Shown here piece after piece: positions 10,970 to 53,067 of a stretch of DNA of 64,000 bases. Positions within the stretch are counted from its first letter, which is position 1. Every line of letters starts with the position of its first letter. Position numbers and translations under genes: made by a program. Source of the DNA: a virus; the IMG/VR virus record IMGVR_UViG_3300042549_010246, positions 20,706-84,705 of that record; one strand, written 5' to 3'. The notes beneath the pieces are model-generated. The model had not been told where the DNA came from and searched no databases. It saw only the letters and a list, made by a program, of their open reading frames with translations.

Positions 10970-11329
10970 ATGGAAAATTCAACAGCAACACCTGCAGCAG
11001 CAGCACCCGCAACACCCGCAGCACCTGCGGCACCCGCAGCACCCGCGGCACCATCAGCACCCGCTATGGCACACGGTGGTAGCGTTGCAGACGCAGCACC
11101 ACAAATGATAGAGGGTGGTGATGTATCATCAATAGAAAATAATTGGGGCACTTGGATAGCCATCGGTTTAGTCTCTCTTACGCTTGTTGCATTAATTTTA
11201 CAGATTGCTGTACATCGCAAAAATTTGAAAAAAGTCGATGCAGACGATGAAGCATTGCTTAAAGATGTCAGAGAACTGAAAATGAATGTGAAGAAACAAA
11301 TGGGCGAAAAGTATGAAACCTTGGCTTGA
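10970..11329 (+). CDS. Pro/Ala-rich membrane protein with MAHGG motif
   Basis: (PAA)n N-term, MAHGGSV, one TM, coiled C-term. Confidence 0.75.
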   Translation: MENSTATPAAAAPATPAAPAAPAAPAAPSAPAMAHGGSVADAAPQMIEGGDVSSIENNWGTWIAIGLVSLTLVALILQIAVHRKNLKKVDADDEALLKDVRELKMNVKKQMGEKYETLA

Positions 11330-11960
11330 CGAAGTTACATATGGCAACCCAAATGATGAACTACTTCCTTATTTAGAAAAAGGGGAATTCGATTTCGTTT
11401 ACGAATCCCTAAAAAAATATCCCTTTCCCAAAAACACTTCGGAGACGACGAGGGATGAAATGAGAGAACTGATTTCAATTCAGAACGCTCCCGAACAAAA
11501 AAACGAAGAAATTATGTCGAGGTATCTAAACTACGACGAACACTTCGGAGATGTGATAAAAACCTATTGTAAGGAAAAAATAGGTGTAGATATGGATGAG
11601 GTTATTGACTCAATAACAAAAGATGGGTACTATGTTCTTGTTAAATTAAAATTTTTCTATCAGCGACCACGCCCCTATCAGTTGGCACAATATTTAAGGG
11701 CGCGGCTTTTTCCATATAAGGCCCCTTCTGCACTGACTCCCGCATATCCTTCGGGACATTCATTTGAGTCATATGCGTTAGCGGAATTTATTGGAAGTAA
11801 ATATCCTGAACACTATCAGTTTTTAACTGATTTAGCACACGACATATCAATTAGTCGATTATTTCTTGGATTGCATTTTGCCTCGGATTTGGATTTTGGC
11901 AGATTTGCGGCTAAAAAATATGTCGGCTCAAAACAATTTGCAAGTAAATATGGAATATGA
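11313..11960 (+). CDS. PAP2/haloperoxidase-superfamily phosphatase
   Basis: KxxxxRPRP, YPSGH, SRxxxGxHxxxD signature. Confidence 0.85.
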   Translation: MKPWLDEVTYGNPNDELLPYLEKGEFDFVYESLKKYPFPKNTSETTRDEMRELISIQNAPEQKNEEIMSRYLNYDEHFGDVIKTYCKEKIGVDMDEVIDSITKDGYYVLVKLKFFYQRPRPYQLAQYLRARLFPYKAPSALTPAYPSGHSFESYALAEFIGSKYPEHYQFLTDLAHDISISRLFLGLHFASDLDFGRFAAKKYVGSKQFASKYGI

Positions 11961-13746: not shown

Positions 13747-14568
13747 ATGAGAGAACCATTATTGGGCGTAGCCGTCGGAAAGAAAGGGGTAGGGAAAACC
13801 TTTACAACCAATAGGGTGATTAAACAATATGTGATGGGTAATCCCGCTTCGGGAATTATGCCAAGAAAAGTTTTGATTTTAGATGCAAACGATGAATATA
13901 CTGAGTATAAGGCAATTGCATTAAAGGATTTGATGTTGTTTAGTGTACACCCTTTGGTTGAAGCAAGAAGAATTAGACCGATTCACCCCGACGGTAAAAA
14001 AATGACCTTGGATGATTTGGCTGCTACGTTGAATTATATTTTGGAGGTATTTTCAGGGGGCCTATTATTGATTGAAGACATTAATCGATTTACTTCTGAT
14101 TTTATGCCACAAGATTTAATGGGAGCGATTGCGACGAATCGACATCGTGACTTGGACATCATTTTACACTATCAAGGTATAGGTCGTATTGGAACGAAGG
14201 TATGGCAAAATATCAATTGGCTAAGGATGCATAAAATTACGGAGTCCGCAATCAGGCACGCCAAAAAGTTTGAAGATAAATATGAGATAATCCGTATATG
14301 CGAATTGATGGTAAACATTCAGTATTTTTTGGGTAACGAAAGGACTTTTCAGTACATCGATTGTGAGAATATGTGTTTTCAAGGTAAGGTGGATGAAAAA
14401 CTATTTGCAGATGCTTGTAAGCAATATTTGGAGGAAAATTATCGTAGAATTATTTCACCACTTTTACAGATTCGTGGTGTGGGTGATAAAAAGAAATTTA
14501 CTGCAGATACCGCAATGAAGTCTGAGATGGAAAGATTGCGTAAAATGTATTTAAAAAGGCAAGTGTAA
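13747..14568 (+). CDS. FtsK/HerA-superfamily (A32/PRD1-P9-like) genome packaging ATPase
   Basis: Walker A GKKGVGKT near the N-term, Walker B LLLIED, RH...IILHYQ (Arg finger plus Gln sensor); 273 aa with no nuclease domain. Confidence 0.75.
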   Translation: MREPLLGVAVGKKGVGKTFTTNRVIKQYVMGNPASGIMPRKVLILDANDEYTEYKAIALKDLMLFSVHPLVEARRIRPIHPDGKKMTLDDLAATLNYILEVFSGGLLLIEDINRFTSDFMPQDLMGAIATNRHRDLDIILHYQGIGRIGTKVWQNINWLRMHKITESAIRHAKKFEDKYEIIRICELMVNIQYFLGNERTFQYIDCENMCFQGKVDEKLFADACKQYLEENYRRIISPLLQIRGVGDKKKFTADTAMKSEMERLRKMYLKRQV

Positions 14569-14906: not shown

Positions 14907-15608
14907 ATGAATAATGTCCGTAAATACCTTGCTGACGCACAAAATCGTGCTCACGAGGGCTTCTTGAATGCCGATGGCTTCTTTGATGACGATTTGAACT
15001 TCACCGCAGGTGATGATTTTATGAATGCAAATGGCAACGACGCTATGCCTGCTGCCGCTCCAACCTCACAACCTTACATCATTCAAATTTCTAACACAGG
15101 TTCTGCTGTTGCGAATTTCAGTGTATTGGGTTCTTACGAGCAGTTGGGTGATACTGCAGCATTTACTTCGGGTAACTTTATATCAGGAGACGTGACTATT
15201 TCGTCTGCTATTCCAAACGTAACCTATCAGCAAATGTTGTATCAGTTTATGAACAACCCTTTCAGCACAGGTTTGACTTACATTCAGTCTTCTTCAAACA
15301 CACAGTTGTTGGAAACAATCAGTGTGCAAACTAAAGACGCGAATGGTAACGTGGCCCAAAAGCCTTTGGTGCCTACTATTGACCCATATCAGTTTCAGAC
15401 TACCGTCCTTGCTCTCCGTTTCGGATACAGAATTGACGGTTACACTAAATTGATTTTGAATTCAATTTTGGCTTCAACCACCGTGAAGTTGTATCTGTAC
15501 CCTGCAGACAACATCAACTTGGCTCGTGGATTGTCAGGACGCGCTGTATCAAAAGATTTCAGCAGCCCAGGCATTGTACGTGCTCAAACCGTGAAAATCC
15601 AAGGTTAA
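14907..15608 (+). CDS. putative major capsid protein (single jelly-roll candidate) with acidic N-terminal leader
   Basis: Follows packaging ATPase; own promoter and strong terminator; alternating beta-strand pattern; many C-ending codons; fold is inferred. Confidence 0.55.
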   Translation: MNNVRKYLADAQNRAHEGFLNADGFFDDDLNFTAGDDFMNANGNDAMPAAAPTSQPYIIQISNTGSAVANFSVLGSYEQLGDTAAFTSGNFISGDVTISSAIPNVTYQQMLYQFMNNPFSTGLTYIQSSSNTQLLETISVQTKDANGNVAQKPLVPTIDPYQFQTTVLALRFGYRIDGYTKLILNSILASTTVKLYLYPADNINLARGLSGRAVSKDFSSPGIVRAQTVKIQG

Positions 15609-15629
15609 TCCCTTTTTTACGATTTATAG

Positions 15630-15668
15630 AAAAGGGGCGATGGCACACAGCCTCGCCCCTTTTTTTTT
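15630..15668 (+). terminator. strong intrinsic terminator
   Basis: AAAAGGGGCGATGGC-ACACA-GCCTCGCCCC followed by T9. Confidence 0.85.
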
Positions 15669-15690
15669 AATAGGCTAAAATCAAATAATT

Positions 15691-15861
15691 ATGGCATATA
15701 AAGTCAAATTGGGTAACAAGGATTACTTCTCAGAAGAATTTTCTTCAGAGACGGAAGCAAAAAAAGCAAAGTATTTCGCCATTGTAGGTGCAAAAACTTT
15801 TCGCAGTGCATCGAAATCGATGGACACAAAAATTGTAAAAGTTGTAAAAAAGAAAAAATAA
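15691..15861 (+). CDS. 56-aa basic protein (not in ORF track)
   Basis: MAYKVKLGNKDYFSEEF...KVVKKKK; stop overlaps next ATG. Confidence 0.6.
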   Translation: MAYKVKLGNKDYFSEEFSSETEAKKAKYFAIVGAKTFRSASKSMDTKIVKVVKKKK

Positions 15862-16244
15862 TGACAATCTACGAGTATATCGCAAGAAACAATCCGATGG
15901 GTGCTAAAAGAGTAATTGAATCTTTTGGCTATGTGGTAACACAACCTAAAAAAATGGGCGATAACCTTCGTATGTTGGTTGCGCAAGAAGGAGAGCCCGC
16001 TTTAAAAGCAGTCGTTGATTTACATCCTGATAAAGACTTAATTTTAGAAGTTTTCGGGAATAGTCAAAGTGTTAAAGCAACGGGTGAAAATTTCTTTGGA
16101 GCCGATGGTCTACTTCAAAGCGCAGTTTTAAATAACAACCAACAGCAAAATGACAGCAACAATAAAATGGTGCTTCAAACAAACACATTAATTGTGGCCT
16201 TATCACTCCTTGTAGTTGCAGGGTTAATATTAAAGAATCGATGA
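15861..16244 (+). CDS. C-terminal TM protein, putative virion membrane protein
   Basis: Terminal hydrophobic helix; FFGADG motif. Confidence 0.7.
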   Translation: MTIYEYIARNNPMGAKRVIESFGYVVTQPKKMGDNLRMLVAQEGEPALKAVVDLHPDKDLILEVFGNSQSVKATGENFFGADGLLQSAVLNNNQQQNDSNNKMVLQTNTLIVALSLLVVAGLILKNR

Positions 16245-16843
16245 AAAATTTGAAACCTAACGAAATTTACGCTGTATCAGCGATGACAATTGACAACAAT
16301 ACTGAAGGGGTAAAAACCCTGATTACAAAGTATGGTGTCATTTTGCCAAACAATGCAAGTCGAAGTGATATTGACAAAGCATTTGCAGCCCTTTTAAGAA
16401 AGAGTAAATCTTTCCGCAACGATTTTGCTGTATTGGCGGCAAATGAAAGTCAGAAGAGCGAAAACTTCTCAAATTTTATGGAATTTTTAGGTATGTCAGG
16501 AAGAGGTATTGGAACAGCAAGTGCTCCTTTAAAAACTCCCGACCCAATTCCTGTAAAAACAAGTTTACCGAACACAACTGCAAAAAAACCAAGTGCATTT
16601 GCGGAAGCATTTGATGCTGACACAATTAGAAACGTCATCAATACGGGATTAAATATTTGGGCTACCCGCTCAGGTACTACAGCCTCAACTACAAATGATT
16701 TACAATCAGGTAGGGAATCTTTGAATTTACAACCCCAAAGTCAACAAACACGTGGTATTGGAACGACGGGAATCGTTTTGATTTCAATTGGTGCACTTGC
16801 AGCGGTAGGTGTTTTGATTTATTACCTATCTAAAAACAAATGA
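16241..16843 (+). CDS. C-terminal TM protein
   Basis: Terminal GIVLISIGALAAVGVLIYYL-KNK. Confidence 0.7.
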   Translation: MKNLKPNEIYAVSAMTIDNNTEGVKTLITKYGVILPNNASRSDIDKAFAALLRKSKSFRNDFAVLAANESQKSENFSNFMEFLGMSGRGIGTASAPLKTPDPIPVKTSLPNTTAKKPSAFAEAFDADTIRNVINTGLNIWATRSGTTASTTNDLQSGRESLNLQPQSQQTRGIGTTGIVLISIGALAAVGVLIYYLSKNK

Positions 16844-16844
16844 T

Positions 16845-17018
16845 ATGGAAAATAAAGATTATACCAAAGTCGTTGGATACTCTCAAATAGGTGGTGCCAT
16901 AGGTATCATTTATGCATTTTCAACAAAATCAGGATTCTTCAAAGGGGTCGGCTATTATTTAGTTGGGTCTTTTGTTGCAGGACTGATTGCATCAGGTGTG
17001 ACCGCAGTAAAGAAATAA
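16845..17018 (+). CDS. 57-aa two-TM glycine-rich membrane protein (not in ORF track)
   Basis: MENKDYTKVVGYSQIGGAIGIIYAF... Confidence 0.65.
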   Translation: MENKDYTKVVGYSQIGGAIGIIYAFSTKSGFFKGVGYYLVGSFVAGLIASGVTAVKK

Positions 17019-17242
17019 TGGCAAACGAATTTCAAGACGCTTTAGACAATGTTAAAGAACTGAGTGGACAATCTACTCACGATACCTTTTTGAAGCAAAG
17101 CAAGCGCATTATGAAGGGCAGTGCTACAGGTCTTGTTGTTGGTTTGATGTATGGATGGTACACGAAAAAAAATATTTATGTAACTGCAATACTTGGAGTA
17201 ATTGCAGGAGGCGCGGTTAATTACTTTATTTTCTCAGAATAA
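17018..17242 (+). CDS. two-TM membrane protein
   Basis: Gly-rich hydrophobic hairpin. Confidence 0.7.
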   Translation: MANEFQDALDNVKELSGQSTHDTFLKQSKRIMKGSATGLVVGLMYGWYTKKNIYVTAILGVIAGGAVNYFIFSE

Positions 17243-17246
17243 AATT

Positions 17247-17654
17247 ATGACTTTAGATTCAGCGATAAAATATAAAGATTTTTCGAACCCAAATATAGTT
17301 CGTGCAAGGCCAATTAATATACAAATGGCCAATGATGACTATTTTTCTGTAGCGGGTCCTGCGGGCGCAACACAATTAAAACTCACCAAGGTTTTGACTG
17401 TAAAAAATGCTCAGGGTAAAAATACGAATTATGAGGTGGGTTCAGTTGTTTGGGCGTTCCCTATTCAAACCATCGCCAAATCAAATAGTTATGTTTTTAC
17501 AACGGAAGGTCAAGGGTATATTTTGACTGTAGGTGTTAACGCTGAAATTTATAATCAAAAAGAGTCTAAAGAGACAAAAAAAGGTTTTCCTTTTTCTTTA
17601 GTCGGATTAGCCTTAATCGGAATAGTAATAATTTATACAATGAAAAAATTATGA
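17247..17654 (+). CDS. C-terminal TM protein
   Basis: ATG at 17247 preferred; terminal TM; YFSVAG motif. Confidence 0.65.
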   Translation: MTLDSAIKYKDFSNPNIVRARPINIQMANDDYFSVAGPAGATQLKLTKVLTVKNAQGKNTNYEVGSVVWAFPIQTIAKSNSYVFTTEGQGYILTVGVNAEIYNQKESKETKKGFPFSLVGLALIGIVIIYTMKKL

Positions 17655-17752
17655 AAACAGCGAATGATGAAAAGAAAAAAGGTGGTGCGTTGATGCTTGT
17701 AGGTTTTGCGATGCTCGCCTATGTTGTTTATAAAATAATCGAAAGTAAATGA
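17651..17752 (+). CDS. 33-aa membrane peptide (not in ORF track)
   Basis: MKTANDEKKKGGALMLVGFAMLAYVVYKIIESK, coupled on both sides. Confidence 0.6.
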   Translation: MKTANDEKKKGGALMLVGFAMLAYVVYKIIESK

Positions 17753-17973
17753 AAAAAGAATATATTGAAGCCCTCGTTTTAATTGGAGCCATTGGATTGG
17801 CTATTTACTTAGCAAGTTCTAAGGACTCCGTATTGAAAAGTGCAAAATCAAATTCTCCAACACCGACAGGACCAAAAGGCGGTTTTGAGAATTTCACTGC
17901 AGACGAATTAACTTATGACGACCATTTGTATGGAAATGCAGATGGAGGATTAAAAGGTTTAACATTTAAATAA
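17749..17973 (+). CDS. N-terminal TM protein
   Basis: N-terminal anchor; YGNADG motif. Confidence 0.7.
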   Translation: MKKEYIEALVLIGAIGLAIYLASSKDSVLKSAKSNSPTPTGPKGGFENFTADELTYDDHLYGNADGGLKGLTFK

Positions 17974-17981
17974 ATAAAACT

Positions 17982-18071
17982 ATGACAAAAAACACAAAAA
18001 CAATCTTGACTTTAGCCGCTGTTGCTGCGGTATTGTTCTTCGTTTTCAAGAAGCCAAAAACAGACGCTTAA
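17982..18071 (+). CDS. 29-aa membrane peptide (not in ORF track)
   Basis: MTKNTKTILTLAAVAAVLFFVFKKPKTDA. Confidence 0.55.
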   Translation: MTKNTKTILTLAAVAAVLFFVFKKPKTDA

Positions 18072-18082
18072 TTGTAATTGAA

Positions 18083-18577
18083 ATGAATCGTGACGTATTA
18101 TTAGGCGCGGGGGTCGTTTTGGCCTTCATCGTCCTTGTTAATCGAGCCAAAAAAAACCAAGTAACTGACACCCAAGGTGGCGGTGGTGGTGGTGGCGGTG
18201 GTTTTGGTGGTGGTCCCTTTGTAGGGGGCGTACCCGCAGGACCAATGACTGTCAATACTATTGTTCAACCCGCAGCGCGTCCTGCAAATCAAGGACGCTC
18301 TTACAACGCTGCTGATGTGACTAAAAGTAAAGACACCACTCCAACTGCAGCAGTTACAAGTTCCGCTCAAGCAAAAGCGATAGAAACAGCCACCAACACG
18401 GGTGGAATCGTTCCTATCGGTCAAGGGGGAAGCAGTACACCTACCTACAGCACAGGGACAGTGACTCAAGCAGATTTAGCGAAAGGTGTTGCAGGTAACA
18501 CTGTATTCAAACCTTTCAGCGGAGATGCTAAATTCTTGGGATTTGTAGGTTCAAGACCTAAATTTGAATTTAATTAA
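18083..18577 (+). CDS. N-terminal TM protein with poly-Gly linker
   Basis: Anchor, G9 run, low-complexity T/A/G body. Confidence 0.7.
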   Translation: MNRDVLLGAGVVLAFIVLVNRAKKNQVTDTQGGGGGGGGGFGGGPFVGGVPAGPMTVNTIVQPAARPANQGRSYNAADVTKSKDTTPTAAVTSSAQAKAIETATNTGGIVPIGQGGSSTPTYSTGTVTQADLAKGVAGNTVFKPFSGDAKFLGFVGSRPKFEFN

Positions 18578-18578
18578 T

Positions 18579-18860
18579 ATGTTGTCAGCAAATAAACTAT
18601 ACAAGGAATCAGGTACCACTTTGTCTTTCAAAGAATGGTTGGAGCGTGAAAAGGCAAAAGGCAAATTCATTCCCAACGTGGAAGCGATGGAAGAGTTTGT
18701 GAATGCCGATGGTGGAACTTCAGAGCAAGCCTCTGAGCAACCCGAAATCACAGCGAAATCAGTTGAGAATAAACAGATGTTTACCTCGATTGCTCGAGTA
18801 GGTTTAATTGTTGTATTGACATACTTCGTTTATCGAACTATCAAAAATGAAATTAAGTAA
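18579..18860 (+). CDS. C-terminal TM protein
   Basis: ATG 18579; FVNADG motif; terminal TM. Confidence 0.7.
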   Translation: MLSANKLYKESGTTLSFKEWLEREKAKGKFIPNVEAMEEFVNADGGTSEQASEQPEITAKSVENKQMFTSIARVGLIVVLTYFVYRTIKNEIK

Positions 18861-19071
18861 TACTCAAATAAAGCGCATCATTATTGCAGGGGGATTTTTC
18901 TTCCTGCTTTTGCGCTTTAGAGGATACTTAAATCCCTCAAAAGAAACATTGTCGGCAAAAGACGATAGTGTTTCTGCAAATGGTACCAAATCGGTAATCG
19001 ACAGAGCGATTCACAAAGTAAAAAGTGGCGCGGTAAAAGTTGCAAGCACACCATCTGAAATAAAAAACTGA
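18847..19071 (+). CDS. N-terminal TM protein
   Basis: Hydrophobic N-term. Confidence 0.6.
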   Translation: MKLSNTQIKRIIIAGGFFFLLLRFRGYLNPSKETLSAKDDSVSANGTKSVIDRAIHKVKSGAVKVASTPSEIKN

Positions 19072-19853
19072 TGAAAGAACAAAGAATTGCAACAAAATAT
19101 GCTCCACTTACGCTGTGTGTGGTTTTGAAAACTGAATTCCCTACCAAATTAAACTTGGTGGTGTTTGATGCAAAAAATCCGAAGAGGAAGTTTACTGAGC
19201 GTTACAAAACAGTAACAGGGGAAGAAACGCTGTTTGTTCGAATGCCGTTATCTCCTGACACCGCTGTTGTTCAGGTGTTTGGAGGCGCGGGGATTACAAA
19301 AAAGAATGATTCCAATTTTACTATTGTAAGAGTTTACAAAAAAGGGTTGGAGCGTCGATTTGATTTGAATGATATTGGGAACCCCCAAATACGTTCATTC
19401 GTCAAATTCGCGCAGAAATTTTGTTTTAATGTGAGTGAATTAGAGCCTGAAGAAACTTATCGAAGTGATGACGGAGAATATTTCATTCAGTTAAAGCAAC
19501 AAATCAGAGATGCAAATGGAAAAGTGTTGGGTACTCCCGCACGTATTGGCCGTCAGACGGGGGTTATTCAAGTGAGTAAAACACAATTTGAAGCCTTTAC
19601 AATTCCTATGCGAATGGCAATATTGCTCCACGAATTTTCACATTTTTACTTAAATGAAAAAATGGATGATGAAATGGAGGCAGACTTAAATGGATTGTTG
19701 ATTTATCTCGGACTTGGATATCCAAGGATTGAGGCTTATCAAGCGTTTCTTGAAACATTCAAAAATGCACCAAGCAACTTGAATAAAAAACGCTATGATA
19801 TGATTAATAACTTCATCAACAATTTTGAAAAAATGGACATTGTAATAAAATAG
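19071..19853 (+). CDS. zincin-type metallopeptidase, candidate maturation protease
   Basis: ILLHEFSH (HExxH) followed by EMEAD third-ligand motif. Confidence 0.7.
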   Translation: MKEQRIATKYAPLTLCVVLKTEFPTKLNLVVFDAKNPKRKFTERYKTVTGEETLFVRMPLSPDTAVVQVFGGAGITKKNDSNFTIVRVYKKGLERRFDLNDIGNPQIRSFVKFAQKFCFNVSELEPEETYRSDDGEYFIQLKQQIRDANGKVLGTPARIGRQTGVIQVSKTQFEAFTIPMRMAILLHEFSHFYLNEKMDDEMEADLNGLLIYLGLGYPRIEAYQAFLETFKNAPSNLNKKRYDMINNFINNFEKMDIVIK

Positions 19854-19855
19854 AG

Positions 19856-20278
19856 ATGGCAGTTACAACTTGGAATACAGCACCTAATTATGATGAATGG
19901 GGTCCTGATGACTCTTGGAGTTGCGAGGATTGGATACAATGGCACAAATTGCTAAAATTAAAGTTTGGCAAGGAAAAGGCTAATTATGTTTGGAATTATG
20001 CTTACGCTCAAGGTACGCAAGGAGCATCCCATTGGAGTTGCAGGACAAGCAATACTGCGTTTCGTAATTATACATCCAAAGAAGGATTGAATCCGTATGA
20101 GAGTGCGGGGGCATTCGCTCCAATTTTGAATGTTATTGGAGGAGTGGGCGACGTTGTTAGTGGCACAGGAGATGTATTGTCCAATTTGGGAAAAAATTTG
20201 AAAATAATCACATATATAGCCGTTTTAGGTGTGGCTATTTATGTAGGTGTAACCGTTTATAAAAAGACGAAACAATGA
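19856..20278 (+). CDS. C-terminal TM protein with Trp/Cys-rich N-domain
   Basis: WSCEDWIQWH...WSC; terminal TM. Confidence 0.7.
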   Translation: MAVTTWNTAPNYDEWGPDDSWSCEDWIQWHKLLKLKFGKEKANYVWNYAYAQGTQGASHWSCRTSNTAFRNYTSKEGLNPYESAGAFAPILNVIGGVGDVVSGTGDVLSNLGKNLKIITYIAVLGVAIYVGVTVYKKTKQ

Positions 20279-20433
20279 AAAAAGAATTTATCTATATCGG
20301 TGGTATATTGATTTCGTTAGGTGCAATTTATTATATTTTTAATCAATACAAAAAAAATAAGGATGGTTCAGCCGCTTTAGAAGATAAAGAAATCATAGCG
20401 TTGTTTAAAAAAATTGATTCAGCAAAAAAATGA
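20275..20433 (+). CDS. 52-aa N-terminal TM protein (not in ORF track)
   Basis: MKKEFIYIGGILISLGAIYYIF...; coupled on both sides. Confidence 0.65.
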   Translation: MKKEFIYIGGILISLGAIYYIFNQYKKNKDGSAALEDKEIIALFKKIDSAKK

Positions 20434-20975
20434 GCGCAGAAAAAGGATTGAAATATGGGTTTTTTGCCTTGGCAGGGATTGCAGTAATTCTTGGTGTAGT
20501 ATTATTGGGCAAAAAGAAACCCGATGACGACGGGGGCGGGGGAGATGAAGTTGAACCTGTAAAACCAAATCAGCCCGTAATTGACCCAAGGCAAGCGGCA
20601 GTACCGTTGGATTTAAAAGCAATTCTTGCAAGCAAAGACCCTATGTCACTATTGAAAGGTCGAAAACTTTATGCAAAAATTAACAAAGCAAAAGGTAGAA
20701 ACGAAGCAAGAGTAAATGATGGTTGGGGATTAGGTAGTAATGTAATTTTCGAAAGTACGCCCGAAGGGGAATTTCTTGGGTATGCACAATTTGTTTCAAA
20801 TGATAGAAATTCCGCTAAAGATGCTAAGGGTAAAGTGTATAAATGGATTCGCATTACTTTAGACGATAAGGCTTGGAATCGATACAATGACACCAAATCT
20901 TTCTTGACTCGACAGTTAGTAAAAAATAAAAATAATGATTGGGCTTACTTCAGAGAAGATGTAATTAGATTTTAA
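20430..20975 (+). CDS. N-terminal TM protein with possible SH3-like C-domain
   Basis: Anchor, linker, beta-rich domain ending WAYFREDVI. Confidence 0.6.
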   Translation: MSAEKGLKYGFFALAGIAVILGVVLLGKKKPDDDGGGGDEVEPVKPNQPVIDPRQAAVPLDLKAILASKDPMSLLKGRKLYAKINKAKGRNEARVNDGWGLGSNVIFESTPEGEFLGYAQFVSNDRNSAKDAKGKVYKWIRITLDDKAWNRYNDTKSFLTRQLVKNKNNDWAYFREDVIRF

Positions 20976-20976
20976 T

Positions 20977-21525
20977 ATGAAAAAAATAGTACTGAATAAA
21001 AATTTACAATATGGCCTTTACGTAGTAGCGGCTATAATTGGTGGTTTTGCAATAGTAAAAATTGTCAAAGCAATTAAAGACAATGCGGATAAAGGTGATG
21101 ATGATGACAAAAAGCCTGAACCTGAAACCAAAACGGTTTATGTAGATGCATACTTGTCGAAGTTACCTTTAGGAGTAGATAATTTGACTTGGGGTTCACG
21201 AATCCCCGCGAAGTATTTACCGTCTTTTAATGCTATTTCAGCAGCCAATTCAGATGCTACATTTAAAGCGAATGCTATCAGAGTTCAAACTTTGTTGAAT
21301 CAAAGACTTGCCGCGATTGGTGGTGCTTACCCAAAAATAACAGTTGATGGAAAAATTGGTGAAGAAACAACCAAAGCGATGTTGGCAGTTGCAAGCCAAT
21401 ATGGTAGATTGAACTTATTACCTTTAACGAAAAAAGAAGACCTGAACAATTGGTTGACTTTTTTCAATGTAAAATCAACTTCGGATTCTTCTCCAAAGAA
21501 TGAATTCCCATTTTTCAACAAATAA
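20977..21525 (+). CDS. N-terminal TM protein with peptidoglycan-binding-like motif
   Basis: VQTLLN...VDGKIGEETTKAM resembles PG_binding_1. Confidence 0.6.
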   Translation: MKKIVLNKNLQYGLYVVAAIIGGFAIVKIVKAIKDNADKGDDDDKKPEPETKTVYVDAYLSKLPLGVDNLTWGSRIPAKYLPSFNAISAANSDATFKANAIRVQTLLNQRLAAIGGAYPKITVDGKIGEETTKAMLAVASQYGRLNLLPLTKKEDLNNWLTFFNVKSTSDSSPKNEFPFFNK

Positions 21526-21537
21526 TACGATAAGAAT

Positions 21538-22098
21538 ATGGACATAGATTCTTTTTTCACAGATGGCGACCTAAGTTTCGGAATGGACGGTGCAAGCCCT
21601 AAATTCAAAAACTTTGCAGGAACAGGTCAAAATGTTTCGAGGGGACCTAAATATGGTGAATTTCAATTCAATAAATACCCCGAGTATGGGTTTACTGATG
21701 ATATTTATTCAAACGCTACGGGCGGTTCAAGGTTAAATCAGCCAACGGAATGGTATGTTTCAAAACTTTCCGAAGCCGATAAAAAAGACTGTAAAAAATT
21801 GCAGGGTATTATGGATAATATTTCCATAGATATTGATAAGAACAACAAAAAAATAAGCACTGCAAAAAGAGGTGAAAGAAGAGTTCTTGAAGAGTATAAC
21901 AAGGGCTTGGAATTGGCAGGCAAAAGAGTATTGGAATTAATGAACGCTGCAAATTGCACTCTCGTTCAGCAGGAAGAATTTAATAAAGCGTTAGGCGCGG
22001 CAGGTGCACCATCAAAATCATCGAAAGTTGTTTTGTATGTTGGCATTGGAGTTGCAGCCTTGGCTCTTGGAGTTGTACTTTACAAAAAATTTAAGTAA
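21538..22098 (+). CDS. C-terminal TM protein
   Basis: FKNFAG and YSNATG motifs; terminal TM. Confidence 0.7.
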   Translation: MDIDSFFTDGDLSFGMDGASPKFKNFAGTGQNVSRGPKYGEFQFNKYPEYGFTDDIYSNATGGSRLNQPTEWYVSKLSEADKKDCKKLQGIMDNISIDIDKNNKKISTAKRGERRVLEEYNKGLELAGKRVLELMNAANCTLVQQEEFNKALGAAGAPSKSSKVVLYVGIGVAALALGVVLYKKFK

Positions 22099-22865
22099 TG
22101 AGAACAAACATCAGTAAACAATTGGGATTACCCATCGCTCCCCCACAGCCTAAAGCACCGTCTATAGAGGCTCAATTGGGTTTTGTAGCAGAATATGATA
22201 ATTCTTTGAATAAAAGTAATTTTAATTTCGTAGCAGAATATGATAAGTCTTTAAACACCAAAAATAATGGTGGCTATTTTGACGCTACAGGAGAAGAAAA
22301 GAACTTCAAAGAATATTACAAAGGAAATGTTGCAAACGTTCGCGCTTTGTTGGCACAGGAGAAAATTTCTACCTCAGAGGATTTAGATTTTCTTGAAGCC
22401 AAGAAAAAGTTTTATCAAGAAGGAAAGAAATCTTTGGAAAAAGATATCAATGGTATCAAAATAAATCAAGCACAAAAAGCATTTGGGACGCAAGCCTATA
22501 CACAGCGCGGAAAATATGTTTCTCAATTATGGAGCGTAGATAAAACAATCGAATTGATTGATGAAAGAATTGCGGATGTAAAAGTCATTTTGGAGAAAAG
22601 AGCGGCAAAGGCGAAGGCTGATGCAGATGCGGCAGCAGCAAAAATGAAAGCAGAAGCAGAAGCCGCCAAACAAGCAAAAATCAATGCATTAAAAAAACAA
22701 ATTGCAGAATCTAATGACCCGAATGCCAAAAAACAACTGAAGGACCAATTGAATGATTTATTGCAGGAAGGAACTGAAGGAGTGAAATCAAACAAATTTA
22801 TTTTGATTGGTGGAGCGGTAGCCGTCATTGGAATTTTGTATTACTTTTTTAGAAACAAGGAATAA
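22098..22865 (+). CDS. coiled-coil C-terminal TM protein
   Basis: FVAEYDxSLN duplicated, YFDATG motif, Ala/Lys coiled coil, terminal TM. Confidence 0.7.
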   Translation: MRTNISKQLGLPIAPPQPKAPSIEAQLGFVAEYDNSLNKSNFNFVAEYDKSLNTKNNGGYFDATGEEKNFKEYYKGNVANVRALLAQEKISTSEDLDFLEAKKKFYQEGKKSLEKDINGIKINQAQKAFGTQAYTQRGKYVSQLWSVDKTIELIDERIADVKVILEKRAAKAKADADAAAAKMKAEAEAAKQAKINALKKQIAESNDPNAKKQLKDQLNDLLQEGTEGVKSNKFILIGGAVAVIGILYYFFRNKE

Positions 22866-22867
22866 TT

Positions 22868-23164
22868 ATGTCAATTCAATATCAAGGTGCAGGTTATAGT
22901 TCATTTGAAGAATTTATGAATGATACGGGCGTAGACAAAGATAATTTTGCCGATGCTAAAAAATCAGCAAATCAATTTGGAACCAAGTTTCAAGAAACAT
23001 TCAATAAAGAATTTAAAAACCAATATACGGAGGCTAAAGAAAGGGCCAAAAGATTGGATTCGCAACCAAAAGTGTTGAATCCCATTCCCAACAGTTTATT
23101 GTATTTTGGATTGGTGACGGCAGGTATTTATTTGGCATATTCGTTTATTTTCAAATCAGAATGA
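22868..23164 (+). CDS. C-terminal TM protein
   Basis: FMNDTG motif; terminal TM. Confidence 0.7.
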   Translation: MSIQYQGAGYSSFEEFMNDTGVDKDNFADAKKSANQFGTKFQETFNKEFKNQYTEAKERAKRLDSQPKVLNPIPNSLLYFGLVTAGIYLAYSFIFKSE

Positions 23165-23705: not shown

Positions 23706-24083
23706 ATGAATATTAAAAAAGATTTTTTTAAAGGAGTCAGTCTTTATGCTACCGAATCTTCGGTTCAAGAAACAGAAGTGCAGGTTAGATTGACTATTGG
23801 TCAGACCGAATCTGAGCCTATTAATTATCAGTGGTGCATTAATTGGCAGCCCAATCGTGTTACTAATTATAACGAAGTAATGGGGCGCAAAATTATCAAT
23901 ATCACTGAGGCTTTAGTGGTTCCTATGTTGCATCAAGCAATGGTCAAGTGGGCAAGAACGCTTGACATTTCATTTGAAGATTTCAGTGGTTTTTTGTTCA
24001 AAAAAGACGATGTTATTGGTGTTGCTATCTACGATAAGACAACTCCAAAAAAATTATGTCCAATTGAAGAATTACTTGGATGA
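23706..24083 (+). CDS. hypothetical protein
   Basis: ATG 23706 downstream of TATATTTG (23678-23685). Confidence 0.65.
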   Translation: MNIKKDFFKGVSLYATESSVQETEVQVRLTIGQTESEPINYQWCINWQPNRVTNYNEVMGRKIINITEALVVPMLHQAMVKWARTLDISFEDFSGFLFKKDDVIGVAIYDKTTPKKLCPIEELLG

Positions 24084-24964
24084 GCATCAAAGTAGCACGA
24101 AGTTCACATTGGGTGATTCGAACTCTTGAAGGGAATGGTTTAGCCGTTTACTTAGGAGAAGATGAGCAAATTTATGTCAAAGACCAAAATGGGACCATTC
24201 AATTATTAAAAGAACTTCTCGGGTCGCTATCCTTAGATATTCCCGAAGGTGGTTTTCAAAGTGGAACTTCAGGAACATCGGGTAAAACAAACGGAACATC
24301 GGGCTCATCGGGAACGAGCGGTTCGAATGGTCAAGACGGAACATCAGGTCAAAACGGAGTCGATGGAACTTCAGGGTCATCAGGCTCATCAGGGAGTGCG
24401 GGTACGAGCGGGGTGGATGGAAGTTCAGGCTCTTCGGGTATTAGTGGTGTGGATGGAAGTTCAGGCTCTTCAGGAATTTCAGGTTTCAATGGTGTAGATG
24501 GTTCTTCGGGAACAAGCGGTAATGGTGGAACGAATGGTACGAGTGGTATTAATGGTACCTCAGGTTCTTCGGGAAAAGATGGAGATATTGGGGTTAAAGG
24601 AAGTAATGGAACATCGGGTTCTTCGGGTATTTGCGGTTCCTCAGGTACAAGCGGTAAAGGATATTCTTTTGAAGAAATTGAAAGTCGTTCTAAGACAATA
24701 TTGGATTTTACAAAAAGTCAAATACTTTCCTTAAATTTGAATAATAACACGACCCTAAATTTTGCAGGTTTTCCTGTCGGAATATTTTATCTGATTGTGA
24801 AGCAAGGTATTGGTAATTACAGTGTTAATTTGCCTTACGTTGTCAAACAACCAAAAGGTTTTGAATATGTTCCAAGCATTTACCCAAATGCTGTAGATGT
24901 GTTACAATTTATGTGCGATGGCACATCATTTTATGTGATTGACTGTAAAAAAGAATTGCAATGA
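24080..24964 (+). CDS. short Gly-X-Y (Ser/Thr) repeat fibre protein
   Basis: About 130-aa GTS/GSS/GxN repeat between globular ends. Confidence 0.75.
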   Translation: MSIKVARSSHWVIRTLEGNGLAVYLGEDEQIYVKDQNGTIQLLKELLGSLSLDIPEGGFQSGTSGTSGKTNGTSGSSGTSGSNGQDGTSGQNGVDGTSGSSGSSGSAGTSGVDGSSGSSGISGVDGSSGSSGISGFNGVDGSSGTSGNGGTNGTSGINGTSGSSGKDGDIGVKGSNGTSGSSGICGSSGTSGKGYSFEEIESRSKTILDFTKSQILSLNLNNNTTLNFAGFPVGIFYLIVKQGIGNYSVNLPYVVKQPKGFEYVPSIYPNAVDVLQFMCDGTSFYVIDCKKELQ

Positions 24965-25728
24965 CCAATATTTTAACCACGAGTTTAGGAAGAAACATTA
25001 ATACCGTAGAGGGTAATGGTCTTGCTATATTCGTTGACGACACGGATTTCGTGTTGAAGTTAAAAGACGTTGATGGCAATATACAACCTGTAACAGACTT
25101 CACAGGTAGCGGTGGAACGAGCGGTGGTGGAATACAATCCATCAATGCCTTGACAGCACCCGCGCAATTTTTGGTGACAGGTACTTCAGGAAATGATTTT
25201 GCGGTACAGTCTTCAGGCAATACACATACCTTTAATTTGCCAAATGCGAGTACAAGCGCACGAGGTGTAGTTAGCACGGGCCCACAAACAATCAAAGGGA
25301 TAAAAACATTTACAGACAATGCATTTTTTCAAGGCGATGTTGATATTTTAGGTACGCTTACAGCGGAAGCAAAATCGTTCTTGATTCCACACCCCGACCC
25401 TGACAAACAAGGGTGGGATTTACAACACGGAAACTTGGAGGGTGGCGAACACGGTATTTATCACCGTGGCCGTCTTCAGGGGACAAATATGATATATCTA
25501 CCTTCATATTGGAAGTTTTTGGTGAGTCAGCATACCATTACGGTACACTTGACAAGTGCCAAAGGCAACTTCAATTATTTCGTAGAAGATGTGACTTTAG
25601 AAACTATTAGAATTGCAAAATCCGAGGGTGATTGGTACTCTTATGATTGCTATTTTATAATTCACGCTGAAAGACGAGATATTGGCAAATTGAAGGTGGA
25701 AATTACACCTCAAGAAAAGCAATATTGA
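24961..25728 (+). CDS. fibre/spike-like protein
   Basis: N-term paralogous to previous gene (EGNGLA..); ASTSARGVV..QTIKGIKTF fibre motif; C-term KSFLIPHP...LEGGEHGIYHRG. Confidence 0.65.
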   Translation: MTNILTTSLGRNINTVEGNGLAIFVDDTDFVLKLKDVDGNIQPVTDFTGSGGTSGGGIQSINALTAPAQFLVTGTSGNDFAVQSSGNTHTFNLPNASTSARGVVSTGPQTIKGIKTFTDNAFFQGDVDILGTLTAEAKSFLIPHPDPDKQGWDLQHGNLEGGEHGIYHRGRLQGTNMIYLPSYWKFLVSQHTITVHLTSAKGNFNYFVEDVTLETIRIAKSEGDWYSYDCYFIIHAERRDIGKLKVEITPQEKQY

Positions 25729-27704
25729 TGAAAAAAATACTCCATTTAATTCCTCACCTGAGCACGGGTGGGTGCCCCCAATTCGCTTACGATTTATTAA
25801 GAAAAACCAAAGATACCACAGATGCTTATGTGGTTGAATATGCATTTATTGCTTGGGACTATGTTGTGCAAAGAAATCGAATTATCGATTTGATGCAAGA
25901 CAGATTTTTTTCTTTAGGAGAGCAGAAGGAGCAACTCTTTGACATTATTGATACGATTAAGCCCGATGTCATTCATATTCAAGAATTCCCTGAATATTTT
26001 ATGGACGATGAAATCGCGCGTAAATTGTACAATAAGAATCGAGAATATGTAATTGTAGAAACGAGTCACGACAGTGGATTTAATCCCGCGAATAAGCGGT
26101 TTTTCTCAGACCATTTAGCATTGATAAGCCAATGGCAAATTGATAAATTCAAGGATTATGAAATACCGATTACTCTGTTAGAAAGTGACATTGAATACAA
26201 AACCAAAATTCCCAATCAGAGGGAACAAGGGTTATTAAAACTTGGATTGGACCCCAATAAAAAACACGTTTTGAACGTGGGTCTTTGGACAAGTAGAAAA
26301 AACCAAGCGGAAGCCTTACAGTATGCGAAAGAACTTGAATGGTGTTCTGATATCCAATTTCATTTTATTGGGAATCAGGCTCCTAATTTTGAGAATTATT
26401 GGGCTCCGTTGATGCACGACTTACCATCAAATGTGCAAGTTTGGGGTGAGAGGAGCGATGTGCATTCATTTTATGAGTGTATGGACCTGTTCCTCTTCAC
26501 ATCGCGAGGCACAAATGGCGATATGGAAACAAGTCCGTTGGTTCTCAGAGAGGCAACAGGACATCAAATGCCGATACTGATGTACAACCTCCCTGTGTAT
26601 CTGAATTACTATGATAGGTTTTCGAACGTTAATTACCTCAGCGATTTCACAACCAACAAAAATTTAATTTTGTCACTATTGAAAATTGAAGAAGAATCTT
26701 CAAGCGAATTATTCAAATTTGATTACGCAATTGCTGATAATAAAATTTTCATCAACTATCAAAAAGACAGCAAAATCGAGGTTTGGTTTTCAATATGCGA
26801 TACTGATACCAAACACGCAATTTATGCTTTCAAAGGGCAATTTGAATACAAATCTTCGATGTGGGTAATCCCTATCCCAAAAGATACTTTTGACACTATA
26901 TACAACTCCAAAGGCAATTTCAGAGGTTTTGAAATATCTGTTTGGGACAGTTTGCAAGAGAACAAATTAGACAGCGAAATTATTTGGTTCAATCAGACTT
27001 TACCCATCCCAAATTTTAGAGTATTTGAAACAAATCCTTGGAATTTTACTTGGTCTAATTACAATGAAATGTTCATTGATAAATATTATGAAAAAACCAA
27101 CATTGTAGTTGGTAAGGTTTGCTTAGATATTGGGGCAAATGATGGTTTATTTACTGAATGGTTAATTAGTCAAGGTGTTGAGAAAATTTATGCGATTGAA
27201 TGCGACCCAAGGTGTATAAAATTTTTAAATAAAAAATTCAACTCAAATAAAAATGTGACTGTAATAAACAAGGCTCTATGGAAAGAAAATCAAAGTGAAA
27301 TGAAACTTTATTATGTTGATGACACCTCGGTTTTTAGTAGTTTGAAAGAAGAAGGTAATTGTAAGGGTAAGAATTATTATGATGTTTGTTCTTGGGATTT
27401 TGAAACATTAATTAGTAAACACAACATCAATCAAATAGACTTATTTAAAATAGATATCGAGGGTGCGGAATATGAAGTATTTGAATCGATGACTGATGAG
27501 CAAATTAGTAAAATAAATTCGTTTTTGATTGAAATCCATTTAAATACAAATGGTCAAGTTTATAAAATAACTGATAGATTCAAAATGTTAGGTTATGAAA
27601 TACAGTTCAGAGAGCATAAAAATAACAGTTTGATAAATAATGAATTGGAATGGAAAAATTATGAATGGGCTTATTTAACAGCAACCAAAAAAGTAAATTA
27701 TTAA
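25728..27704 (+). CDS. GT-B (GT4-like) glycosyltransferase fused to FkbM-family methyltransferase
   Basis: HLSTGGCPQ, NVGLWTSRKNQ, ETSPLVLREA; C-term LDIGANDG and KIDIEGAEY. Confidence 0.85.
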   Translation: MKKILHLIPHLSTGGCPQFAYDLLRKTKDTTDAYVVEYAFIAWDYVVQRNRIIDLMQDRFFSLGEQKEQLFDIIDTIKPDVIHIQEFPEYFMDDEIARKLYNKNREYVIVETSHDSGFNPANKRFFSDHLALISQWQIDKFKDYEIPITLLESDIEYKTKIPNQREQGLLKLGLDPNKKHVLNVGLWTSRKNQAEALQYAKELEWCSDIQFHFIGNQAPNFENYWAPLMHDLPSNVQVWGERSDVHSFYECMDLFLFTSRGTNGDMETSPLVLREATGHQMPILMYNLPVYLNYYDRFSNVNYLSDFTTNKNLILSLLKIEEESSSELFKFDYAIADNKIFINYQKDSKIEVWFSICDTDTKHAIYAFKGQFEYKSSMWVIPIPKDTFDTIYNSKGNFRGFEISVWDSLQENKLDSEIIWFNQTLPIPNFRVFETNPWNFTWSNYNEMFIDKYYEKTNIVVGKVCLDIGANDGLFTEWLISQGVEKIYAIECDPRCIKFLNKKFNSNKNVTVINKALWKENQSEMKLYYVDDTSVFSSLKEEGNCKGKNYYDVCSWDFETLISKHNINQIDLFKIDIEGAEYEVFESMTDEQISKINSFLIEIHLNTNGQVYKITDRFKMLGYEIQFREHKNNSLINNELEWKNYEWAYLTATKKVNY

Positions 27705-27714
27705 AATTAAATAT

Positions 27715-29478
27715 ATGACAAACATAGCAACCCCTTTATTTAGAGTAGAGTATGAAAAAGACGGCAACAAAATTTTTGTTTACTATCAAAATGAAAAACC
27801 AATTGATGTAAGTATATCCGTAGCAGACATCGATTCAAAACACGCGATTTATGCATTTGACTCTCATTTTAGAGATTATTCAGGCTGTTGGAATGTTCCT
27901 GTACCTGTAGCCGCTTTGAATCATTACAATCGGACAGGATACTTTAGGGGATATGAGGTTTCGATTTACACTTCGGATAGACTTACTCTGTTGGAACAAC
28001 ATACGATTTGGTATAATGAAAACGCTCCAAAATTTGATAGAGTATTATTCCCTACTGACCCTTGGAATTTGACTTGGATTAATTACACGGAAATGTTTGT
28101 TGAAGACTTCTACAACCCGCTTCAAATGAACATCAATGGAGTTTGTTTGGATATTGGCGCAAATGATGGTCTATACACAGAATATTTGCTTCGTAATGGA
28201 GCAGAACGGGTTTATGCAGTAGAATGTGACCCCCGTAGTATAAAGTTCCTTAACAAGCGTTTTAATGGCGATAAAAGGGTAGTTGTGGTTGACAAAGGAT
28301 TATGGAATGCAAACCAAAATGGTGTAAAGTTGGCTTACAAAGAGGACACGAGCACAGTTTCATCTATCAAGACTGAAGTTCATCACTTTGATGAAAACAA
28401 TTATTTTTACATTGATACTTGGGATTATGCGACTTTGAAGAGCAAAATGAATATCAGTAAAGTTGATTTTTTCAAGATTGATATTGAAGGTGCTGAATAT
28501 GAAGTTTTCGAATCAATGACCGATGATGACATTTGTGAAATTGAAGGTTTTATGGTCGAGATTCATTGGAATTCAAATGGCCGTATTTATGGTATCACTG
28601 ATAGACTTGAGAAATTAGGTTATTCAATTGAACTTCGCAGACATACGGTGGACAATGCCGTAGTAGAGAACCGTGACGAATGGAAAGATTACGACCTATG
28701 CACATTCTACGCTTCAAAAAAAAAAGAGCCACGGAAGTTTAGTTTAAGCATCCATCATTTGCAAACGAGTCTTTTTACTGATGTTGAAAGGCAAAGTCGT
28801 GACAAAATTGATTATTTAATTCATTTGTTGAAGAAAGATTCTCGTTTTAGTGAGGTCTATTGGAGTCGTCATATCAATACTCCTTGGAAGGAATTACCAA
28901 CTAAAGAGAATTGTAAAAGACCAAATGCGTTGTCGATGGAAAAATTTCCAAATGGCATAAATGAATATGGAGAAACTGCGCTGACACCCGCTCACTATGG
29001 CTGCTTTAGAGCATTTAATGATGCTATTCAGATGCATTTCAACAAGGACTATTCAGCGACGTTGATATTTGAGGGTGACGCGGATATTCGAGATGTGTAT
29101 TCGTTTATTGAATGCCTATACCTTGCCCTGTGTGAGGCAGACAAAAATGAAATAGATTTCATTTCATTTGGAGGAGCGTATCATTTGGAGACAGGCGAAT
29201 TATTAGCACATCCCGTGGAGAGAATTGATTCCTTAAATTTTGGGTGGATTTCAAAACACGTTCCATTTGCACATTCGATAATTATTCCTCAGAGATACAT
29301 CAAACAGATGATGCACGCCTTTGCAACTGAGCCTTGGGATGTTGCTGATTTATTTTTTATGAATCATTTTAATATGCATCCAAACAGGAGACAATTTGTA
29401 AGCGAAATTCAACTGAGTCATCAAATTGATGGATATTCATTAATCGATAAAAAAGTCAAAAATTACTTAATCAAATGA
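27715..29478 (+). CDS. FkbM-family methyltransferase fused to GT25-like glycosyltransferase
   Basis: LDIGANDG, KIDIEGAEY; C-term LTPAHYGCF and LIFEGDA. Confidence 0.8.
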   Translation: MTNIATPLFRVEYEKDGNKIFVYYQNEKPIDVSISVADIDSKHAIYAFDSHFRDYSGCWNVPVPVAALNHYNRTGYFRGYEVSIYTSDRLTLLEQHTIWYNENAPKFDRVLFPTDPWNLTWINYTEMFVEDFYNPLQMNINGVCLDIGANDGLYTEYLLRNGAERVYAVECDPRSIKFLNKRFNGDKRVVVVDKGLWNANQNGVKLAYKEDTSTVSSIKTEVHHFDENNYFYIDTWDYATLKSKMNISKVDFFKIDIEGAEYEVFESMTDDDICEIEGFMVEIHWNSNGRIYGITDRLEKLGYSIELRRHTVDNAVVENRDEWKDYDLCTFYASKKKEPRKFSLSIHHLQTSLFTDVERQSRDKIDYLIHLLKKDSRFSEVYWSRHINTPWKELPTKENCKRPNALSMEKFPNGINEYGETALTPAHYGCFRAFNDAIQMHFNKDYSATLIFEGDADIRDVYSFIECLYLALCEADKNEIDFISFGGAYHLETGELLAHPVERIDSLNFGWISKHVPFAHSIIIPQRYIKQMMHAFATEPWDVADLFFMNHFNMHPNRRQFVSEIQLSHQIDGYSLIDKKVKNYLIK

Positions 29479-51626: not shown

Positions 51627-51633
51627 TTTTATA

Positions 51634-53066: not shown

Positions 53067-53067
53067 A

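Follow-up and report, generated by a model that had tools for sequence, protein, structure and literature searches.

The concept of a cleavage motif shared between viral proteins has clear precedents. The T4 protease gp21 acts at shared cleavage sites, the motifs of the T4 and phiKZ prohead proteases end in Glu, and the adenovirus protease recognises sites of the form (M/I/L)XGG-X. In SPN3US, according to excerpts of PMC10052503, gp245 has 14 cleavage sites, which are spread over 9 substrates and share a motif present in several copies inside propeptides, and in vaccinia virus, as described in part of PMC6336343, I7 removes the N-terminus of the membrane protein A17 at AG| sites that are also used in core proteins. 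Here we describe a 64,000-nucleotide stretch of viral DNA, referred to as the window (bases 20706-84705 of the 84,705-base virus record IMGVR_UViG_3300042549_010246, rated complete), in which a short peptide motif is found in the leader of a capsid candidate and in a set of membrane proteins, around the gene of a HExxH metallopeptidase (zincin). The motif is very probably a functional linear element with a common reader. It belongs to a lineage of viruses that is widespread, abundant, unstudied and uncultured, and the open-access literature yielded nothing on this lineage, on the motif or on metalloprotease maturation in membrane-containing phages. We know of no maturation protease or shared peptide motif in the membrane-containing phages PRD1, PM2, FLiP and phiCjT23.

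Enrichment and distribution of the motif

The original prediction had proposed the loose form [FY]-x-[NGDS]-x-x-G as the common element, and all the peptides that it listed are present in the genes to which it assigned them. Matches were counted in the 113 called open reading frames (ORFs) of the whole 84,705-base genome and compared with 1000 per-protein shuffles that kept composition. The loose pattern is at background, with 47 matches against 43.0 ± 6.2 expected and 283 of the 1000 shuffles reaching 47, whereas for the tighter core [FY]-x-[NGD]-A-[DNTS]-G the count is 9 and the expectation 0.54 (about 17-fold), and none of the 1000 shuffles attained 9. Because this core is a post hoc pattern, it was run unchanged on other contigs. 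Eleven near relatives (L002-L012), whose capsid candidates are 61-91% identical to that of the window, gave 1-6 matches per locus against 0.03-0.22 expected; L002-L010 and L012 are each enriched, and the single match in L011, for which 0.04 were expected, was also attained in 11 of 300 shuffles. Across 49 related viral loci centred on zincin homologues (35-95% identity), 152 matches were found against 6.6 expected, about 23-fold; as the instances are related by descent, this is not an independent count, and its weight therefore lies in conservation at 40-50% protein identity and not in the raw number. Exact enumeration of gapped words in the single genome did not single out the motif, which was not significant after correction, the best motif-related word, ADGG, ranking 5 of 15,403 patterns (p 8e-6).

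The consensus of the motif is [DE]-x-[FY]-x-[NG]-A-x-G, with Ala rarely replaced by Val, Met or Phe, and acidic residues usually precede the core. In 44 instances from seven genomes, in which the Ala and the final Gly were fixed by the search pattern, [DE] is found at position -2, the aromatic position is Phe or Tyr in 41 (Phe 31, Tyr 10, Leu 2, Met 1), the Asn position is Asn in 28 and Gly in 10, and the residue before the final Gly is Asp, Asn, Ser or Thr in 38. The family of the tail-anchored protein 15861 (genes are named after their first base in the window) accepts Val, Met and Phe in the fourth position as well. With a relaxed pattern, the motif was found in 49 of 61 members of the capsid candidate family, 34 of 49 of the 15861 family, all 7 of the 22098 family, 4 of 8 of the 17749 family, 14 of 48 of the 18564 family, 28 of 140 of the joint 21538/16241 family and 8 of 36 of the 20430 family, as well as in 27 of 55 members of a family of about 90 residues that is absent from the window. 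The same pattern was found in none of the members of other families: the zincin (0/50), the P-loop ATPase (0/48), 17018 (0/47), 23161 (0/35), 11313 (0/34), 12314 (0/33) and 19856 (0/32).

The motif lies in the variable linkers of at least seven unrelated families of single-pass membrane proteins, in two architectures. One of them has the motif between a soluble N-terminal domain and a linker that leads into a C-terminal helix. The other begins with an N-terminal helix and a basic stretch, after which come the motif and a tail of variable sequence. The top-residue frequency of the motif columns exceeds that of the flanks in the 15861 family (0.65 vs 0.30 over 44 distinct members, with the final Gly at 0.98), the 22098 family (0.71 vs 0.51) and the 21538 family (0.30 vs 0.15 over 126 distinct members). 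The strong instances are kept in orthologues, namely both copies in the capsid candidate and those in 15861, 18564, 21538 (YSNATG), 22098 and 17749. As is typical of linear motifs, the motif also comes and goes at positions that are not homologous; two copies are present in the L009 homologue of 22098.

The motif-bearing proteins had been described as otherwise unrelated, and in an all-against-all BLAST at an E-value of 1e-3 they are, except for 21538 and 16241, which their relatives link into a common family under single linkage. The enrichment of the motif, its conservation in orthologues and its turnover between families support the part of the original proposal in which the leader of the capsid candidate and membrane proteins share a short, functional linear signal.

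The capsid candidate and its leader

The capsid candidate (14907-15608, plus strand, 233 residues) adjoins the P-loop ATPase gene and begins with an acidic leader (residues 1-51), after which comes its beta-sandwich core. The leader carries two copies of the motif, FLNADG at residues 19-24 (14961-14978) and FMNANG at residues 38-43 (15018-15035), the second of which has the form F-[FM]-x-A-x-G in relatives. In 40 of the 49 related loci the tight pattern is found at residue 18-20 of the homologue of the capsid candidate. Over 47 distinct homologues the leader retains the pattern F-x-N-A-D-G-F-[FI]-D-D-D-L-S-F-T-G-D-D-F-F-x-A-x-G, after which comes TSQPY. The motif surroundings are conserved too, so that the leader appears to be more than a disposable peptide.

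The predicted model of the capsid candidate has a pLDDT (predicted local distance difference test) value of 52; residues 1-54 are below 50 and unstructured, and the core is rich in beta structure. Its best fold matches include the capsid proteins of GFLV, EhV-201, Faustovirus, FLiP, phiCjT23 and PRD1, with Z scores of 5.4-6.1 that lie below the noise level, and a sequence-profile search of the PDB returned nothing meaningful. With a low-confidence model and weak fold matches, the protein is best regarded as a putative capsid protein. It has 2182 homologue clusters in the protein collection, all of them unnamed.

A paralogue that lacks the leader had been predicted, and one is indeed found at 49913-50362 (plus strand, 149 residues), residues 20-114 of which align to positions 99-191 of the capsid candidate profile. 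An hmmsearch gave an E-value of 6.6e-32 against a profile of leaderless homologues and 3.7e-5 against the capsid candidate profile, and relatives of the virus also carry a leaderless paralogue. The ORF 48596-49069 was considered as the paralogue and rejected in favour of 49913-50362. An amphipathic membrane tether formed by the N-terminal helix of the leader was also rejected, as its hydrophobic moment of 0.38-0.51 is not above the maxima of shuffled sequences (mean 0.44).

A conserved zincin within the gene cluster

The zincin gene (19071-19853, plus strand, 260 residues) sits inside the cluster of motif genes, where the original prediction had placed it. Residues 1-93 of the protein form an N-terminal beta-sandwich, which precedes a helical catalytic domain bearing the signature HEFSH (187-191) and E201-x-E203-A-D205. 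HEF[SA]H is invariant in 9 aligned sequences, HExxH is present in all 50 homologues listed and the full HExxH...ExEAD signature is intact in 49 of these 50. In the model (pLDDT 88), the E201-x-E203-A-D205 segment is on helix 201-214, next to helix 178-193, and one of its Glu residues would be the third zinc ligand.

Comparison of residues 108-255 with BepA (6sar_A) gave a Z score of 8.0, with 121 aligned residues, a root-mean-square deviation of 4.3 and 16% identity, a Z near 8 being a value that can reflect a common arrangement; the catalytic domain also matched the M48-like 3c37_B (Z 6.7) and Ste24 (4il3_B, Z 6.1). A Foldseek search of the PDB with the model returned no match at E <= 0.001, and its matches were dominated by the beta-sandwich. 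The sole profile match was Peptidase_M56, at an E-value of 0.2-0.3 in 2 of 9 members. The protein atlas returned unnamed viral clusters only, and a DUF4344 row (0.87) and an M48 row (0.80) serve as leads only. No longer or fused forms of the zincin were found, and no other protease was recognised among the 40 proteins scanned in Pfam and PHROGs. The number of its homologue clusters, 2130 compared with 2182 for the capsid candidate, is as expected of two co-inherited core genes. The zincin gene belongs to the conserved core of the lineage, and its product is apparently an active peptidase.

A second motif

The original prediction had also suggested that the virus uses two peptide address codes, the second being a GG motif of soluble proteins. 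Such a motif, of the form hydrophobic-A-x-G-G, does exist, with 13 occurrences against 2.0 expected. Nine copies are in the 1094-residue protein 4052-7336, where they are spaced like polyprotein junctions, one is in the inter-domain linker of the DUF2958-RelA/SpoT protein (7333-8448), and 10970 (10970-11329), 53068 (53068-53862) and a 764-residue protein upstream of the window have one copy each. In both orthologue sets examined, those of 10970 and 7333, the motif is conserved amid variable flanks. It is, however, not limited to soluble proteins, since 10970 has a membrane helix, and both motifs contain A-x-G; the two codes are therefore distinct in form and not cleanly split between soluble and membrane proteins.

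Proposed recognition of the motif

The most economical reader of the motif is the conserved peptidase encoded in the same gene block, and we favour, at a probability of roughly 40%, that the motif is a recognition signal for the zincin in virion maturation, with cleavage. The zincin would recognise the motif as a common element on the capsid leader and on the membrane proteins, would trim the leader of the capsid protein during maturation of the particle and would detach domains from their membrane anchors. In the cuts made by zincins, the residue on the C-terminal side is usually hydrophobic, so that the cut here would probably fall just before the aromatic residue of the motif. The enrichment of the motif, its lineage-wide conservation, its restriction to certain families and the co-inherited peptidase gene in the same block all speak for this proposal, as do the leader being unstructured in the model of the capsid candidate and the existence of a paralogue without a leader. 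A predicted complex between the zincin and leader residues 1-60 scored 0.52, compared with 0.11 for the best of three controls, and is weakly consistent with it, with an agreement between runs of at least 35% of contacts. Of the reference pairs, 58 of the 80 solved complexes and 2 of the 110 mismatched ones pass the mark for such predictions, and passes with a score of 0.60 or less come from only 7 of those 80 and from both of the passing mismatches.

Several points weigh against recognition and cleavage by the zincin. The tight core was defined only after the data had been seen, a recognisable motif is absent from many orthologues, and the motif forms no island of conservation in the 18564 family (0.39 vs 0.39) or in the 17749 family (0.54 vs 0.60). 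In the capsid candidate, the part of the leader upstream of the motif is itself strongly conserved, and the motif columns differ little from their flanks (0.76 vs 0.65 for the first copy and 0.66 vs 0.63 for the second). The zincin has neither a membrane helix nor a signal sequence, and by profile it is not an M48 peptidase, with no Pfam family at E <= 0.1 and no sequence match in the PDB. The side of the membrane on which the motif lies is ambiguous when judged from flanking charges, both flanks being basic. Cleavage at the motif has the predicted complex as its one direct proxy, and this prediction is weak: the partner has a pLDDT of 45-48 and it was scored without contact output. Finally, hydrophobic-A-x-G-G is an equally good candidate for the site of this protease.

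Docking without cleavage, which we consider nearly as likely and still tentative, would explain much of the same data. Here the motif would remain uncut and serve in docking or incorporation: by binding one partner common to all its carriers, for example the capsid shell, a scaffold or the beta-sandwich of the zincin, it would gather the membrane proteins and the capsid protein at the assembly site. The enrichment, the family restriction and the turnover fit this equally, the whole leader is conserved around the motif, and the predicted complex of zincin and leader (0.52 vs 0.11) is as compatible with binding as with cutting. An expanded family of small proteins, in which the motif lies about 10 residues past an N-terminal anchor and ahead of hypervariable Cys-rich tails, also fits an anchoring cassette. 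There is a precedent in T4, whose capsid targeting sequence (CTS), a conserved element, loads diverse proteins into the scaffolding core (excerpts of PMC3012670), and the propeptides of T4 and SPN3US also serve in targeting, as excerpts of PMC10052503 and PMC3012670 report. Against docking, the common partner is hypothetical, the capsid candidate would be an awkward receptor since it carries the motif itself, and the block would contain a conserved, intact protease for which no substrate is proposed.

A purely structural role, in which the motif forms by itself a tight turn or hairpin (N-x-D-G) or a loop that binds metal, evolved repeatedly and has no common reader, is improbable. N-A-D-G and D-G sequences do favour turns, and the capsid leader and some 18564 relatives continue as G-x-[FI]-D-[DN], like positions 6-9 of an EF-hand-like loop. 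The residue that would be the first calcium ligand, however, is Phe, Tyr, Leu or Met in all 44 instances, the acid at position 12 is mostly missing, as it is from the capsid leader, and Asn is replaced by Gly in 10 of the 44. That the motif keeps to a single gene block and to particular families throughout a wide lineage also argues for a shared reader.

A modification site, for example one for Asn glycosylation by a virus glycosyltransferase, is more improbable still. The genome is rich in glycosyltransferases and FkbM-type methyltransferases and N-A-[ST]-G forms are common in more distant relatives, but only 9 of the 44 instances have Ser or Thr at the third position of the sequon, Asn is present in 28 and replaced in 16, and the copies in the capsid leader read N-A-D-G or G-A-D-G. 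A chance or composition effect in linkers rich in Asn, Asp and Gly, for which the background frequency of the loose pattern and the exact-word scan of the single genome could be cited, is hardly credible and largely refuted by the excess over composition-keeping shuffles in the genome and in the relatives and by the near-invariant final Gly of the 15861 family.

Motif-bearing proteins of the cluster and beyond

The region 14907-23164 contains 19 plus-strand ORFs, 15 of which encode one hydrophobic segment of 19 residues, mostly at the extreme C-terminus and followed by basic residues. The proteins described below are all encoded on the plus strand.

In the tail-anchored protein 15861 (15861-16244, 127 residues), FFGADG (residues 78-83, nucleotides 16092-16109) lies between a conserved N-terminal domain and a variable linker with the C-terminal helix. 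The adjacent tail-anchored protein 16241 (16241-16843, 200 residues) has only FLGMSG in the window, where orthologues have FSNANG or YSNAVG. The motif is degenerate in the tail-anchored protein 17202 (17202-17654, 150 residues), which reads YFSVAG (residues 47-52, 17340-17357); it has a single BLAST orthologue, and an 84-residue L003 protein with a matching upstream segment, although without a BLAST match, has FIGADG. An N-terminally anchored protein, 17749 (17749-17973, 74 residues), carries YGNADG (residues 61-66, 17929-17946), and FLGFVG of 18083 (18083-18577) is not conserved. Directly after the conserved N-terminal domain of the tail-anchored protein 18564 (18564-18860, 98 residues) is FVNADG (residues 45-50, 18696-18713), and some members of its family have shifted forms, F-[AS]-[ND]-V-x-G.

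Downstream of the zincin gene, the tail-anchored protein 21538 (21538-22098, 186 residues) has YSNATG (residues 57-62, 21706-21723) and a weaker FKNFAG (residues 23-28), and the tail-anchored coiled-coil protein 22098 (22098-22865, 255 residues) has YFDATG (residues 60-65, 22275-22292). The tail-anchored protein 22868 (22868-23164, 98 residues) carries a variant without Ala, FMNDTG (residues 16-21, 22913-22930); its orthologues keep F-[MF]-x-x-T-G, and the relaxed pattern is found in none of 15 members.

Two further proteins are encoded at a distance. The N-terminally anchored protein 60523 (60523-61035, 170 residues) has FKNAVG just past its helix (residues 35-40, 60625-60642), a second site, YFNANG (residues 151-156, 60973-60990), and a weak YIGSDG; as a single relative, at 75% identity, has the gene, retention of the motif is uninformative here. 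The C-terminus of this protein (LENLVRSYKRP) matches that of the L005 and L006 orthologues of 18083 (LENLVRSFNRP), a sequence similarity that suggests hidden paralogy between 60523 and 18083. The 225-residue protein 47634 (47634-48311) contains YGNASG (residues 54-59, 47793-47810), has no membrane helix and shares the peptide with only one relative, at 79% identity, so that its membership of the motif set is uncertain.

Among the relatives, L031-L036, L039 and L049 (about 7-8.4 kb in each locus) contain tandem arrays of small paralogues with a common N-terminal helix, a basic stretch and NSEG-FFGA[SN]G, followed by hypervariable, Cys-rich tails.

Genome context

Base composition is about 35% G+C throughout, with the exception of 53-56% at 33-47 kb. 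Among the 40 proteins scanned, no terminase, portal or HK97 capsid protein (the hallmarks of tailed phages) was found, nor was a DNA polymerase, primase or helicase recognised among the proteins scanned, and a tblastn search of 50,697 GenBank phage records with the ATPase and the capsid candidate gave no match.

Upstream of the capsid candidate is the gene of the P-loop ATPase (13747-14568, plus strand, 273 residues), a candidate packaging ATPase. It matches Pfam AAA_22 (E 0.0015) and DUF87/HerA (E 0.0038), both weakly and under the curated cut-offs, and has a weak PHROG match to terminase ATPases; a profile search of the PDB returned ClpB (E 0.027) and HerA (E 0.4), neither of them meaningful. 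A lipid phosphatase of the PAP2 superfamily (11313-11960, plus strand, E 9.9e-11) is encoded among the structural genes and kept in 34 related loci; it is unusual in a phage and compatible with membrane biogenesis. A membrane-anchored SLT transglycosylase (9548-10273) is encoded upstream of the motif region. The layout of these genes resembles, as we read it, the morphogenesis block of phages with an internal membrane.

The host is probably bacterial. A 132,486-base contig (L069 and L073-L076), binned in a metagenome-assembled genome of Sediminibacterium, encodes the zincin, the capsid candidate and a paralogue. Towards its ends it has a viral appearance, with 32-39 small ORFs per 16 kb and a G+C fraction of 0.31, and the contig probably represents a 132 kb relative binned together with a Bacteroidota genome; a Sediminibacterium or other Bacteroidota host is therefore a lead only.

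The largest ORF (31618-47634, plus strand) encodes 5338 residues, about 4,400 of which form Gly-X-Y triplets with X and Y almost only Ser, Thr and Ala (GSSGTS...). Its G+C content is 53-56% compared with about 35% elsewhere, and it encodes a giant, collagen-like fibre rich in Ser and Thr. Three large glycosyltransferase/FkbM-methyltransferase genes precede it (25725-31625), and shorter collagen-like genes are found at 24080-24964 and upstream of the window. Other genes include a RelA/SpoT-type nucleotide pyrophosphokinase domain fused to DUF2958 (7333-8448, plus strand), here encoded by a virus, a 969-residue protein with serial winged-helix segments resembling PadR, MarR and FUR (1123-4032, plus strand), and a recombination pair of a RecT annealing protein and a PD-(D/E)XK exonuclease (50841-53862, minus strand).

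Comparison with known systems

If the zincin reads the motif, this would provide a handle on a lineage that is very common, the capsid candidate and the zincin each having more than 2000 protein clusters. The motif would then predict virion components, cut positions and the coupling between capsid and membrane, and a metalloprotease would be the enzyme with which a third kind of virus, unrelated to the others, evolved proteolytic maturation by a shared code. Were it a docking code, the motif would instead provide a portable tag with which proteins could be loaded into such particles. An extension that we consider unlikely in its entirety is a lineage of bacterial viruses of about 70-130 kb with membrane-containing particles built of small jelly-roll proteins and matured by the zincin, which would read both peptide codes, the first on the capsid leader and membrane proteins and the second on large polyprotein-like proteins; it would represent the first maturation-protease system in non-tailed prokaryotic viruses, convergent with those of adenovirus and poxvirus.

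In common with PRD1, PM2, FLiP and phiCjT23, the virus encodes small membrane proteins as well as a transglycosylase with a membrane anchor, and its P-loop ATPase gene adjoins that of a beta-sandwich capsid candidate; its genome, however, is 85 kb compared with 9-15 kb and the fold matches are weak (Z <= 6.1). The M48 and M56 peptidases, such as BepA/YfgC, Ste24 and the BlaR1 sensor domain, share with the zincin an HExxH motif and a downstream Glu on the next helix, and act on membrane or membrane-associated proteins. In the zincin, by contrast, the spacing to the Glu is very short, 10-12 residues, a beta-sandwich replaces the membrane or tetratricopeptide repeat parts, and the protein is soluble and encoded by a virus.

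As in T4 and SPN3US, one short motif is found in an N-terminal capsid leader, with more than one copy per leader, and in several unrelated proteins. Those viruses are tailed, with HK97-fold capsids and serine proteases, whereas here a candidate zinc peptidase is found, most of the putative substrates are membrane proteins and cleavage is a hypothesis. The proteases of vaccinia virus and adenovirus are cysteine proteases of eukaryotic viruses, and none such was found among the 40 proteins scanned here. As with vaccinia I7, however, a motif of small residues is common to core and membrane proteins, and I7 acts in a membrane-containing particle that is built with a jelly-roll protein, according to excerpts of PMC6336343. 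The second motif, hydrophobic-A-x-G-G, likewise resembles the AG|X sites of vaccinia virus and the sites of the adenovirus protease.

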